The notes beneath the pieces were generated by a model that was not told the DNA's origin, searched no databases, and was given only the letters and a program-made list of their open reading frames with translations. The position numbers were made by a program, and so were the translations under genes. From NCBI RefSeq assembly GCF_022846255.1, contig NZ_AP025682.1: a DNA stretch of 64,000 nucleotides; one strand, written 5' to 3'. Shown one piece after another: positions 47,491 to 52,686 of the stretch; position 1 is the stretch's first letter, and every line of letters begins with the position of its first letter. Origin of the DNA: Escherichia coli. Lineage in GTDB: Bacteria; Pseudomonadota; Gammaproteobacteria; Enterobacterales; Enterobacteriaceae.

Positions 47491-48141
47491 ATGGCAGTTT
47501 CAGCAAAGCACGACGAATTTAATCACTGGTGGGCAACAGAGGGCGACTGGGTTGAAGAGCCTAACTATCGCCGTAATGGTATGAGCGGGGTGCAATGCGT
47601 CGAGCGCAACGGCAAAAAGCTGTATGTAAAGCGCATGACGCATCATCTGTTTCATTCCGTACGTTATCCGTTCGGCCGACCAACGATTGTCCGTGAGGTT
47701 GCGGTAATTAAAGAACTGGAACGGGCCGGTGTCATCGTGCCGAAGATCGTTTTTGGTGAAGCGGTGAAAATTGAGGGTGAATGGCGCGCGTTGCTGGTGA
47801 CTGAAGATATGGCGGGGTTCATCAGCATTGCTGACTGGTATGCCCGGCATGCAGTATCGCCTTATTCTGACGAAGTACGGCAAGCCATGTTGAAAGCAGT
47901 GGCGCTGGCGTTTAAGAAAATGCATAGCGTTAATCGTCAGCATGGCTGTTGTTATGTTCGCCATATCTATGTGAAAACAGAAGGTAAGGCAGAAGCTGGA
48001 TTTCTTGACCTGGAGAAAAGTCGTCGCCGCTTGCGTCGTGATAAAGCGATTAATCATGACTTCCGCCAGCTGGAAAAATATCTGGAGCCGATCCCCAAAG
48101 CGGACTGGGAGCAGGTGAAAGCATATTACTACGCTATGTAA
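47491..48141 (+). CDS. inaA: InaA, acid-inducible putative lipopolysaccharide kinase-family protein
   Basis: 216 aa ORF MAVSAKHDEFNHWWATEGDW... Confidence 0.82.
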   Translation: MAVSAKHDEFNHWWATEGDWVEEPNYRRNGMSGVQCVERNGKKLYVKRMTHHLFHSVRYPFGRPTIVREVAVIKELERAGVIVPKIVFGEAVKIEGEWRALLVTEDMAGFISIADWYARHAVSPYSDEVRQAMLKAVALAFKKMHSVNRQHGCCYVRHIYVKTEGKAEAGFLDLEKSRRRLRRDKAINHDFRQLEKYLEPIPKADWEQVKAYYYAM

Positions 48142-48145
48142 TCGT

Positions 48146-48183
48146 TGTAGGCCAGATAAGACGTATAAGCGTCGTATCTGGCG
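48146..48183. repeat. REP-like element between inaA and yfaE
   Basis: tgtaggccagataagacgtataagcgtcgtatctggcg, degenerate REP palindrome. Confidence 0.55.
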
Positions 48184-48194
48184 TTAAAACCAAT

Positions 48195-48449
48195 TCACAT
48201 CTCGATTTCAATATCGCCTTTTGCCCGGCAACAACAGGGCAAAATTTCCCCCGGCTGAATAAAAGCTAACGGTTCGGCAATCCAGTCCACCTGGCCTGCG
48301 ACCAGTCGGGTGCGACAGGAGCCGCAGTAACCTTCGCGGCACTGGTACTCAACCGCCACATTGTGGGATTCCAGCGCCGCCAGAAGGGAAGGGTGTTCAT
48401 CCTGGCACAGCAGTTGTGTGCCAGTAATGCGCAGGGTAACGCGGGCCAT
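48195..48449 (-). CDS. yfaE: 2Fe-2S ferredoxin YfaE (NrdB diferric-tyrosyl radical cofactor maintenance)
   Basis: 84 aa ORF with Cys motif CREGYCGSC...C; immediately downstream of nrdB. Confidence 0.88.
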   Translation of the reverse strand: MARVTLRITGTQLLCQDEHPSLLAALESHNVAVEYQCREGYCGSCRTRLVAGQVDWIAEPLAFIQPGEILPCCCRAKGDIEIEM

Positions 48450-49579
48450 CAGAGCTGGAAGTTACTCAAATCGTCGGTGTCCACTTCCGCGTCAATCTGC
48501 CCGACCAGATAAGAACTGACTTCCACTTCCTGCGGAGCAACCTGCACGTTATCAGACACCAGCCAGGTGTTGATCCACGGGATCGGGTTGGAACGCGTCT
48601 GGAACGGCAGATCCAAACCGACTGCCTGCATACGGATATTGGTGATGTATTCAACGTACTGGCAGAGGATGTCTTTATTCAGACCAATCATCGAACCATC
48701 ACGGAACAGATAATCCGCCCAGTCTTTCTCTTGCTGTGCCGCCTGGACAAACAGGTCATAGCACTCCTGCTTACATTCTTCGGCAATTTCCGCCATCTCC
48801 GGATCATCCGCGCCGCTGCGCAGCAGATTCAGCATATGCTGGGTGCCGGTCAGGTGCAGGGCTTCGTCACGGGCAATCAGGCGAATAATCTTGGCGTTGC
48901 CTTCCATCAATTCGCGTTCTGCAAAGGCAAAGGAACAAGCAAAGCTGACGTAGAAACGAATCGCTTCCAGCGCGTTAACGCTCATCAGGCAGAGATACAG
49001 TTTTTTCTTCAGCTCGCGCAGGCTGACGGTCACGGTTTTACCGTTGACGGTGTGGGTGCCTTCGCCCAGCAAATGCCAGTAGCTGGTCATCTCGATCAGT
49101 TCATCGTAATAGCGGGAAATGCCTTCTGCGCGTTTCTGGATCTGCTCGTTAGTGACGATATCGTCAAACACAACCGACGGATCGTTAACGATATTACGAA
49201 TGATATGAGTATAGGAACGGGAATGAATCGTTTCTGAGAACGCCCAGGTTTCTACCCAGGTTTCCAGTTCCGGGATCGAGATCAGCGGCAGCAGTGCCAC
49301 GTTCGGACTGCGACCCTGAATGGAATCCAGCAGCGTCTGATATTTCAGGTTGCTGATAAAGATGTGTTTTTCGTGTTCAGGCAGTGCCTGGTAATCGATA
49401 CGGTCGCGGGAGACGTCAACTTCTTCCGGACGCCAGAAGAAAGAGAGCTGCTTTTCGATCAGCTTTTCGAAGATGTCATATTTTTGCTGATCGTAGCGAG
49501 CCACGTTGACCGGCTGACCAAAGAACATCGGTTCTTTGAGCTGATCATTTTTCGTCTGTGAAAAGGTGGTATATGCCAT
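48449..49579 (-). CDS. nrdB: Ribonucleoside-diphosphate reductase 1 beta subunit
   Basis: ORF 48449..49723; ATG at 49579 gives [14 protein letters not shown]..., 376 aa. Confidence 0.92.
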
Positions 49580-49602
49580 GAATGTGTCCTGTTGGGAGTT
49601 TA

Positions 49603-49716
49603 ATGCCGGATAAGGCATTTTACGCCGCATCCTGTGCCTGATGCGACGCTGGCGCATCTTATCAGGCCTACAAAACCGAGCCGTAGGCCGGATAAGGCGT
49701 TCACGCCGCATCCTGC
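49603..49716. repeat. BIME/REP cluster within the nrdA-nrdB intercistronic spacer
   Basis: two or more gccggataaggc...gcatc palindromic units in opposite orientations. Confidence 0.75.
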
Positions 49717-49725
49717 ATCTCAATA

Positions 49726-52011
49726 TCAGATCTTACATGCGCCGCTTTCGCAGCCATCGTCCTGGATTGACGGCACCAGATCGTCTTGTGCGTCTTCAGC
49801 ACCGTCACGGGTGTTCTGATAATACAGCGTTTTGACCCCGAATTTGTAGGCGGTGAGCAGGTCTTTCAGCAGTTGCTGCATCGGCACTTTTCCTGACGGG
49901 AAGCGTGACGGATCGTAGTTGGTGTTAGCAGAGATCGACTGATCGATAAATTTCTGCATGATACCCACCAGTTGCAGGTAGCCATCGTTACCCGGCATTT
50001 CCCACAGCAGTTCATAGGCGTCGTGCAGATGCTCGTAGTCCGGCACCACCTGGCGCAGAATACCGTCTTTCGACGCTTTGATGCTGACGTAACCACGCGG
50101 CGGTTCAATACCGTTAGTGGCGTTAGAGATCTGCGAAGAGGTCTCGGACGGCATCAGGGCAGAAAGCGTGGAGTTACGCAGGCCGTGCGTTTTGATTGAC
50201 TCACGCAGTGCTTCCCAGTCGTAATGCAGCGGCTCATTAGCGATGGCATCCAGATCTTTCTTATAGGTATCGATCGGCAGGATCCCTTTCGCGTAAGTGG
50301 TTTCGTTAAACCACGGGCACGCCCCTTGCTCTTTCGCCAGCTCATTAGACGCTTTCAGCAGGTAATACTGAATGGCTTCGAAGGTTTTATGCGTCAGGTT
50401 GTTGGCGCTGCCGTCGGAGTAGCGTTTACCATGCTTCGCCAGGTAGTAAGCGAAGTTGATCACACCAATACCCAGCGTACGACGACCCATCGCTCCACGT
50501 TTGGCGGCCGGGATCGGGTAATCCTGATAATCCAGCAGCGCGTCGAGTGCGCGTACTGCCAGAATTGCCAGCTCTTCCAGTTCATCCAGGCTGTTAATTG
50601 CGCCCAGGTTGAAAGCAGACAGCGTACACAGCGCGATTTCACCGTTCTCGTCGTTGACGTCGTTCAGCGGTTTGGTCGGCAGGGCGATTTCCAGGCACAG
50701 GTTAGACTGGCGCACTGGCGCGATGGCCGGATCAAACGGGCTATGGGTATTGCAGTGGTCAACGTTCTGAATATAGATACGACCGGTAGATGCACGTTCC
50801 TGCATCATCAGCGAGAACAGCTCAACGGCTTTCACACGCTGCTTGCGGATGCTGTCGTCTTTCTCATATTTGGTGTACAGGCGTTCAAACTCTTCCTGAT
50901 CGGCGAAGAACGCGTCGTACAGCCCCGGTACGTCGGACGGGCTGAATAGGGTGATATCTTCACCTTTCAGCAGACGGGTATACATCAGTTTGTTGATTTG
51001 TACCCCGTAGTCCATATGACGCACGCGGTTGCCTTCCACCCCACGGTTGTTTTTCAACACCAGCAGGCTTTCCACTTCCAGATGCCACATCGGGTAGAAC
51101 AGTGTTGCCGCACCGCCACGCACACCGCCCTGAGAGCAGGATTTCACCGCTGTCTGGAAATGTTTGTAGAACGGAATACAACCGGTATGGAACGCTTCGC
51201 CACCGCGAATCGGGCTACCCAGCGCACGAATACGCCCGGCGTTGATGCCGATCCCGGCACGCTGGGAAACGTATTTAACAATCGCGCTGGAGGTGGCGTT
51301 AATGGAATCCAGGCTGTCGCCGCACTCGATCAGCACGCATGAGCTGAACTGACGAGTCGGGGTACGCACGCCGGACATGATTGGCGTCGGCAGCGAAATT
51401 TTAAATGTGGAAACCGCGTCGTAAAAACGCTTCACGTATTGCAGGCGCGTTTCACGCGGGTAGTTCGAGAACAGGCACGCGGCAACCAGAATATAAAGGA
51501 ACTGGGCGCTTTCGTAGATTTCGCCGGTCACGCGGTTCTGTACCAGATATTTGCCTTCCAGCTGCTTAACGGCAGCATAAGAGAAGGTCATATCACGGTC
51601 GTGATCGATAAACGTGTCCATCTGCTTGAACTCTTCTTCCGTGTAGTCTTCCAGCAGATGATTATCGTATTTGCCCATCTCGACCATTTTCACCACATGG
51701 TCGTACAGTGCAGGCGGCTCAAACTGACCGTAGGCTTTTTTACGCAGGTGGAAGATCGCCAGACGTGCGGCGAGATACTGATAATCCGGCGCATCACGGG
51801 AGATCAGGTCTGCGGCAGCCTTGATAATGGTTTCGTGGATGTCAGAGGTCTTGATACCGTCATAAAACTGAATGTGGGAGCGCAGCTCGACCTGGGAAAT
51901 CGAAACGTTATGCAGTCCTTCTGCCGCCCAATCCAGAACGCGATGGATTTTGTCGAGATTGATGCGCTCTGTGCTACCGTCGCGCTTTGTCACCAGCAGA
52001 TTCTGATTCAT
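49726..52011 (-). CDS. nrdA: Ribonucleoside-diphosphate reductase 1 alpha subunit
   Basis: 761 aa [29 protein letters not shown]..., ATP-cone N-terminus. Confidence 0.93.
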
Positions 52012-52074
52012 GTATGTCGTACCTGTTTTTCAATAGCTTCATGCAGACTACCTGTAGTGAGGGAAGCTGCTAAG

Positions 52075-52120
52075 AACACTATATATAGGGGGTATGTTTG
52101 GGATTCACTGCAAGATAGTG
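52075..52120 (-). promoter_or_regulatory. Candidate tandem NrdR boxes in the nrdA promoter
   Basis: two 16-bp imperfect palindromes acactatatatagggg and cactgcaagatagtgt, 64-110 bp upstream of the nrdA ATG. Confidence 0.45.
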
Positions 52121-52152
52121 TGAAACTGGCCCTCTTGCAAGTGCATAACTTT

Positions 52153-52161
52153 GTGGATAAC
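52153..52161 (-). promoter_or_regulatory. DnaA box upstream of nrdA
   Basis: + strand tgtggataa = reverse complement TTATCCACA, exact 9-mer consensus. Confidence 0.6.
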
Positions 52162-52686
52162 TCAGGAAGGAAAAAGTGGCTTCCGCGCACCTTAGGTCAG
52201 ACAAGGTGTCCGGGAAAGTCAATGGGAAGAGAAAAATTTGTTAAAAATAACCGTTCGGTGAATTCTTGAACGGTAAAATAGGATAGGTAAATTGATATAG
52301 ATGGTTTATTAATCTTGTTGCTAATGATTGCCAAAATTGATCTAGGCACAAGTCGTCACATAATCTGATGTATCAGTTGTGGTCAATATATAAGCGAGTG
52401 TAAGCGATTGTTGAGTCGGAAATGGTTGTTTTATATTCGGTTATTGTTAAATACTAAGCCAATTTGTTACTTTTGTATTTATTATAAGAATATTATTTAT
52501 TGCTTTAATTCAGTTTAAATATAACCGATTTACCTTAAAGTTATTAATTTGAATTGTGATGCATCTAAATTAATTATCAGATAATAACAAAATAGTTATT
52601 ACATCAGGGGCAGAATTTACAAAAGAAAAATACCCTATATCGCATAATGCGATTAAATACGCCATCTTATAGAAAATGATGGTTAG

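Follow-up and report, generated by a model that had tools for sequence, protein, structure and literature searches.

The window, that is, the whole 64-kb stretch of DNA that was analysed, is 98.5% identical to E. coli at best, measured over 6 kb, and carries the genes for the class Ia ribonucleotide reductase on its minus strand. The alpha subunit (761 aa) is encoded by nrdA (49726..52011, minus strand), which was identified from the list of open reading frames and by a full-length match to NCBIfam NF006578 (1644 bits), and which ends with a TGA stop codon at 49726-49728. The beta subunit (376 aa) is encoded by nrdB (48449..49579, minus strand; NCBIfam NF006576, 807 bits, full length), whose ATG lies at 49577-49579 and whose product is 100% identical to the NrdB of E. 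albertii. This identity raised E. albertii as a candidate species for the window, but it was rejected on account of the 98.5% match to E. coli DNA. None of the complete genomes in the collection matched the window exactly. The third gene, yfaE (48195-48449, minus strand), was recognised by NCBIfam with 134 bits. Between nrdA and nrdB lies a spacer of exactly 146 bp (49580-49725). Because all three genes are on the minus strand, the spacer element is read as the reverse complement. Inside 49580-49725 we found neither a sigma-70-like promoter on the coding strand nor an intrinsic-terminator-like site on the minus strand, and the REP stems described below are not trailed by U-rich sequence. Thus, nrdB is expected to be read from the same transcript as nrdA, from the nrdA promoter, and the spacer is predicted to be transcribed as part of the nrdA-nrdB-yfaE mRNA. 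According to the literature, nrdB is essential in aerobic growth; in CRISPRi papers, nrdA appears only for its essentiality or its promoter. At the 3' end of the operon and outside the spacer, a single REP was observed 12 nt past the yfaE stop codon (48147-48185, minus strand). In K-12, a Rho-dependent termination region is located ~310 nt further downstream of this REP, antisense to inaA (Adams 2021).

The spacer contains three REP units: in the direction of the mRNA, a y REP comes first, then, after 11 nt of linker, a z1 REP in inverted orientation, and last a REP whose tail is degenerate. Starting from the nrdA stop codon, a left flank of 9 nt (UAUUGAGAU, 49717..49725) leads to the foot of the REP1 stem. 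REP1 itself (y type, 34 nt, GCAGGATGCGGCGTGAACGCCTTATCCGGCCTAC, 49683..49716) carries its CTAC tail at the 3' end in the mRNA sense (CCUAC) and is joined tail-to-tail to REP2 by the 11-nt linker (GGCTCGGTTTT, in RNA GGCUCGGUUUU, 49672..49682), which is S-like by the linker classes of PMC3333891. REP2 (z1 type, 37 nt, GTAGGCCTGATAAGATGCGCCAGCGTCGCATCAGGCA, 49635..49671) is inverted with respect to REP1, with GTAG at its 5' end in the mRNA sense (GUAGG). It meets REP3 (y-like, 33 nt, 49601..49633) head-to-head, with 1 nt between them. REP3 has the orientation of REP1 and ends in GGCATTA instead of GGCCTAC, such that the GTAG/CTAC tetranucleotide at the foot is present in REP1 (CTAC) and REP2 (GTAG) and absent from REP3 (ATTA). 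The right flank of 21 nt (AACUCCCAACAGGACACAUUC, 49580..49600) holds the ribosome-binding site of nrdB, with the Shine-Dalgarno motif AGGA at 49587-49590, 7 nt before the AUG. All these features are on the minus strand, and the REP cluster is wholly extragenic, between the stop codon of nrdA and the start codon of nrdB.

The assignment of the REPs is well founded, in that REP1 had no mismatch to the 30-nt y consensus and REP2 a single mismatch to the 36-nt z1 consensus, with 0.00 such matches expected from shuffled sequences in either case. At 33, 34 and 37 nt, the three units also have the size of E. coli REPs, which are imperfect palindromes of 30-40 nt. A repeat finder recovered both the inverted REP1/REP2 pair and the direct repeat of REP1 and REP3, which are 93-94% identical across their two arms. 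An earlier interpretation of this DNA (the sequence-only reading) had placed a BIME/REP cluster with at least two inverted REP units in a 146-bp gap within the nrdAB operon. The coordinates and size of the gap were exact, and the location within the operon is borne out by the consensus matches and by the lack of promoter- or terminator-like sites in the spacer. REPs are indeed present and REP1 and REP2 form an inverted pair, but the actual count is three. These three are among five REP units in the whole window, and a query that included the spacer element matched E. coli genomes at 30 places each in the median.

We compared the cluster with the described classes of BIME, that is, elements of at least two alternating REPs with linkers, an arrangement that is found in the spacer. 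In the definitions of Ton-Hoang et al. 2012 (PMC3333891), BIME-1 joins y and z1 through a long, IHF-binding linker and occurs in single copy, and BIME-2 joins y and z2 through a short one and occurs in tandem arrays of variable number; atypical BIMEs mix parts of these two classes and vary in copy number. The spacer element shares with both main classes the REPs in alternating orientation separated by linkers, but has z1 as the partner of y, a short linker between the two and a copy number that varies. We rejected BIME-1 because the linker is 11 nt long, the IHF consensus WATCAANNNNTTR has no match in the spacer, and K-12 has the unit in tandem copies, and we rejected BIME-2 because the partner REP is z1 and not z2. 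Since a short linker joins its y and z1 REPs, since it lacks the IHF consensus, and since strains have three or five REPs, the spacer element is classed, from its sequence, as an atypical BIME. An Rfam scan of 48000-52500 returned only sub-threshold matches to naRNA4 (RF02564), the best with 48 bits and the others with 31-32, against a gathering threshold of 59.5, and this identity was also rejected. The naRNA4 model derives from REP325, and hence the sub-threshold matches reflect generic similarity of one REP to another.

These results bear on a possible role of the element at the level of DNA, as a site where gyrase or nucleoid proteins bind or cleave and thereby relieve supercoiling behind a strongly transcribed operon. 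As reviewed in PMC3333891, gyrase, IHF and Pol I all bind to BIMEs, and the resemblance to the REP325-derived naRNA4, though below threshold, points in the same direction. However, the spacer lacks the IHF consensus, the naRNA4 scores of at most 48 bits do not go beyond REP-to-REP similarity, and the site is absent from 31% of genomes, which have a BoxC-like allele instead (see below). We therefore regard a DNA-level role as very improbable.

The element has a known counterpart in K-12 MG1655, where the nrdA-nrdB spacer is 233 bp long and contains five REPs, catalogued as REP164a-e (PMC10100675). By alignment, the window spacer is best described as a shorter, 3-REP allele of this BIME. The two share the locus, its flanks, the REP types, the terminal degenerate REP, the 9-nt distance to the stop codon and the nrdB ribosome-binding site, but the window has three REPs in 146 bp and thus one y-S-z1 unit fewer: one such unit plus the terminal degenerate REP, compared to two units in K-12. 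The same difference was seen more widely, as the 5-REP alleles of K-12, O157 and E. albertii correspond to the 3-REP alleles with one additional y-S-z1 unit of 80-87 bp. The 3-REP alleles in this alignment came from the window, E. coli E200086 and locus L007, and their flanks were identical to those of the 5-REP alleles. The window further differs from K-12 by two substitutions in the stems, C-to-A in REP1 and C-to-T in REP2. The element is therefore an ordinary and already known one, being a catalogued BIME in a transcript, nrdAB, that has already been named as REP-regulated.

RNA structure prediction, which the sequence-only reading had named as a check, supported a structured spacer: the RNA folded to -63.6 kcal/mol, with z = -3.4 relative to shuffles. 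The predicted fold consists either of three stem-loops or of one long y/z1 duplex and one hairpin. Folded alone, the hairpins of REP1, REP2 and REP3 reached -15.1, -20.1 and -11.8 kcal/mol, respectively. In the alternative pairing, REP1 and REP2 would form a single duplex of -46.4 kcal/mol; in this ability to fold as one long hairpin the y/z1 pair resembles REPIN doublets. The C-to-A change in window REP1 creates an A.G mismatch at the third pair of the stem, and the hairpin is 6 kcal/mol weaker than REP1 of K-12, which folds to -21.3 kcal/mol. In REP2, the pairing is kept as G.U after the C-to-U change. The foot of the REP1 stem lies 9 nt after the nrdA UGA and the uninterrupted stem 12 nt after it, and the 9-nt distance is common to the K-12, O157, y/z2, E. 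albertii and L007 alleles and is preserved throughout the BIME-type alleles. At the other end of the spacer, the paired stem of REP3 ends 29 nt before the nrdB AUG and its tail CCGGC 25 nt before, which places the stem just outside a ribosome-binding footprint.

The short distance between the stop codon and REP1 can be set against published work. As summarised in RepRanger 2025 (PMC12306157), which cites Liang, Rudd and Deutscher 2015, REPs stall ribosomes and lower the translation of the upstream gene, and do so only at less than 16 nt from its stop codon. The mechanism given in that summary (PMC12306157) comprises ribosome stalling, mRNA cleavage and trans-translation, and nrdAB is named there among the transcripts with REPs that were 'previously reported' by Liang and co-workers in 2015. 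REP1 of the window is within the 15-nt range, whether measured to the foot of the stem (9 nt) or to the uninterrupted stem (12 nt). The window element is therefore like the translation-regulating REPs of Liang 2015, as far as these are summarised in PMC12306157, both in its distance from the stop codon and in that nrdAB is among the reported transcripts. It differs in that its REP1 is weaker than the K-12 copy.

A mechanism can be proposed that follows the published model of stalling. A REP near the stop codon would have to be unwound before the ribosome could place the stop codon in the A site. The terminating ribosome would then stall, the mRNA would be cleaved and tmRNA recruited, and the output of NrdA would go down relative to that of NrdB. 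REP hairpins would also be expected to block 3'-to-5' exonucleases, such that the upstream nrdA segment would be prolonged once the mRNA had been cut downstream. The two effects, stalling and exonuclease barrier, are compatible and could act together, yet they push NrdA in opposite directions. As to its origin, the element would be selfish REP/BIME DNA whose copy number shifts by the gain or loss of a whole y-S-z1 unit. Liang and co-workers are said to have taken nrdAB as an example of how cistrons of one mRNA can be translated to different extents. On balance, we think it probable that the spacer BIME is a post-transcriptional intercistronic element, with stalling at termination, which we infer from the geometry, as its best-documented effect. 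This agrees in part with the sequence-only reading, which had suggested that the REPs tune the alpha:beta subunit ratio after transcription by stabilising the upstream mRNA or modulating translation of the downstream cistron. Post-transcriptional tuning is reasonable and has already been published, but the effect reported in the summary of PMC12306157 is on nrdA and not on translation of the downstream cistron. Counted against stalling at the nrdA stop codon are the REP-free spacers in 31% of genomes, the free variation in REP number, the weaker REP1 of the window, and the absence of a 3' end in the data of Adams 2021.

The other part of the mechanism could also operate by itself. If the BIME were a barrier to mRNA decay only, a stable nrdA-only 3' fragment would accumulate and NrdA would be in excess over NrdB, with no effect on termination. 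This is the classical function of REPs, as it is presented in connection with Newbury 1987 and Khemici and Carpousis 2004, and mRNAs that contain REPs gain stability in a way that depends on RNase E and ATP (PMC10100675). The arrangement also resembles the intercistronic REPs of malE-malF and hisJ-hisQ (Higgins 1982; Newbury 1987), in that the REPs lie between cistrons and would be expected to block exonucleases in favour of the upstream cistron. Unlike for these stabilisers, however, neither a processed 3' end nor a half-life difference was found for nrdAB in the Adams 2021 tables and the literature, respectively. The Term-seq tables of Adams 2021, which cover three growth conditions and list prominent curated ends only, contain no 3' end in the K-12 spacer, and the supplements have no entry for nrdA, nrdB, yfaE or K-12 2347xxx-2348xxx. 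The processed nrdA 3' ends that had been suggested as a further check were thus not seen in K-12, which, given the restriction of the tables to prominent ends, speaks weakly against a dominant 3' end produced by nrdA processing. The literature search found no data on nrdA versus nrdB half-lives. A decay barrier as the sole function is conceivable, and we hold it as a tentative second reading.

We next consider how far the element is conserved within the species. A survey of 5,426 complete E. coli genomes revealed at least four forms of the spacer, with some BIME in ~3,720 genomes (69%). The 3-REP form seen in the window made up about 20%, the 5-REP form about 44% and a 4-REP y/z2 form about 5%, these shares being estimates from 39 evenly spaced chromosomal rows. 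The remaining form, BoxC-like and with no REP, was counted exactly: an 88-bp REP-free spacer was present in 1,684 of the 5,426 genomes (31%). This spacer (L005 406-493) contains a GC-rich palindrome of 52 nt, CCCCTCTCCCC...GGGAGAGGGTTAGGGTGAGGGG, which is presumably similar to the 'Box C' family. The palindrome is dispersed over the genome, at 14 places in the median, and its right half and the junction with the nrdB leader were also found in the spacers of Pseudocitrobacter (L009, L011). The BoxC-like hairpin begins ~19-29 nt from the nrdA stop codon and thus beyond the 15-nt range. REP3 was kept in all BIME-type alleles, and the portion with the nrdB ribosome-binding site was conserved even in the REP-free BoxC-type allele. 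REP number (3, 4 or 5) varied without obvious constraint. Since REPs are absent from 31% of genomes, any control or tuning mediated by them must be dispensable.

Such polymorphism could mean that the spacer has no selected function and is merely a tolerant landing site for selfish palindromic repeats, with incidental effects on expression. The agents would be REP/BIME elements spread by the TnpA-REP/RAYT transposase, together with BoxC-type elements, which insert, amplify and get lost. At least four allele classes segregate in E. coli, REPs are missing from 31% of genomes, and the BoxC-like insert is dispersed in its own right, all as expected for a landing site, and in Citrobacter, Klebsiella and related genera this position is occupied by other REP types of their own. 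On the other hand, REPs so close to a stop codon have a published effect, as summarised in PMC12306157, and the comparison with other species described below also argues against a lack of function. We consider this explanation rather doubtful.

A scan for NrdB with one genome per species gave 80 Enterobacterales loci, and the spacer could be extracted from 79 of these. Its length across the 79 species ranged from 12 to 322 nt. In all 71 spacers of at least 25 nt (71/79 species), a hairpin with a folding energy of -12 kcal/mol or lower was present. It started no more than 15 nt after nrdA in 58 of these 71 (82%), counted from the stop codon, compared to 17% of mononucleotide shuffles; the species are phylogenetically related and the hairpin caller is crude, and the figures are to be read accordingly. 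Bacteria in general often have hairpins close to stop codons. Photorhabdus, Xenorhabdus and Providencia had spacers of 12-23 nt without a hairpin. Like the window, most other Enterobacterales have a stable stem-loop just after nrdA, but with sequences unrelated to that of the window spacer, and the spacer hairpins are non-homologous between lineages. Escherichia-type REPs were found in E. albertii and L007, and one or more different REP types in Citrobacter, Klebsiella, Enterobacter and relatives. Pseudocitrobacter and Phytobacter had BoxC-like palindromes, and Kosakonia, Cedecea, Buttiauxella and Rahnella a plain GC stem with a U run that looks like an intrinsic terminator.

This comparison affects the alternatives in different ways. 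A hairpin was present in 71/71 spacers of at least 25 nt whatever its distance from the stop codon, including the BoxC allele and Rahnella, in which it begins 28 nt from the stop codon. Since the hairpin is present irrespective of this distance, a role as a decay barrier fits better here than a distance-dependent stall. The finding of some hairpin in every spacer of at least 25 nt among the 79 species also speaks against a site without function, as do the plain GC stems with a U run in Kosakonia, Cedecea, Buttiauxella and Rahnella, which are not mobile repeats. The pattern suggests that a structure may be favoured here.

The terminator-like spacers raise the further question of transcription attenuation, in which the BIME would cause partial Rho-dependent termination and lower the transcription of nrdB and yfaE relative to nrdA. 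BIME-associated attenuation has been described (Espeli, Moulin and Boccard 2001). Terminator-like hairpins occupy the same spacer in other Enterobacterales, one of which (L032) passes a consensus terminator scan, and a spacer of ~50 nt is too short to accommodate a new promoter, so that a leaky stop may be ancestral. In the window, however, none of the three REPs is followed by a U run, and the coding strand gave no terminator-like match. In K-12, none of the Rho-termination regions of Adams 2021 is in the spacer, the nearest being at 2349082, downstream of yfaE. As nrdB is essential aerobically, any stop would also have to be weak. Attenuation by the BIME therefore appears improbable to us. 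The terminator-like arrangement of a GC hairpin and a U run between nrdA and nrdB was observed at ~1430-1500 in each of 12 loci (L017, L019, L023, L025, L029, L030, L032, L035, L069, L071, L077 and L083). These spacers are ~50-70 nt long and too short for a new promoter, which implies a leaky stop inside the operon in these lineages.

A broader view would be that the spacer is selected for a stable stem-loop right after the nrdA stop codon and that lineages use unrelated sequences to this end. In that case, mobile repeats would time and again have taken the place of an attenuator or stabiliser present in the ancestor, and the E. coli alleles would set different NrdA:NrdB ratios. We regard this as speculative and unlikely, though if it were true, the BoxC, 3-, 4- and 5-REP alleles would lead to different NrdA:NrdB ratios and to differences in dNTP supply between lineages. 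In E. albertii NBRC 107761 (L006 1261-1500), we observed that REP1 carries a paired change in its stem relative to K-12, from GGCG/CGCC to GGTG/CACC, such that the hairpin persists. Selection on structure could account for such a change, and so could gene conversion among REPs.

What the present analysis adds to the known BIME is the comparison of genomes, which reveals the spacer as a hot spot: ~31% of E. coli have a different palindromic repeat in it, and nearly all Enterobacterales have some hairpin. Ribonucleotide reductase sets the dNTP pools and thereby affects replication fidelity. Given this role, the natural alleles with 0, 3, 4 and 5 REPs are a ready-made series for the question of whether intercistronic REPs tune subunit stoichiometry.

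Several further features were observed around the spacer and elsewhere in the window. On the plus strand, an 11-codon ORF (49578..49613) runs antisense to the start of nrdB and differs by one residue from YoaM of K-12 (b4779), the translation of which was demonstrated by a lacZ fusion (Weaver 2019). Its final 13 nt and the stop codon lie within REP3, and hence the repeat supplies the end of the ORF; in strains with the BoxC allele, the yoaM-like reading frame would extend much further. A terminator-like hairpin followed by TTTTT is also present on the plus strand (49527-49555), antisense to nrdB codons 12-18 and between a reported antisense transcription start and yoaM. Kosakonia and an Enterobacteriaceae MAG have it at the corresponding position (L017 and L032, 1535-1553, minus strand), and it may merely reflect the coding constraint on nrdB. 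Finally, a second BIME at 56485-56560 has a y REP and, beyond a linker of 11 nt, a REP in inverted orientation. It lies between two convergent genes, one for a yfaL-like autotransporter of 1258 aa (52687-56463, plus strand) and the other an ORF of 256 aa (56603-57373, minus strand).
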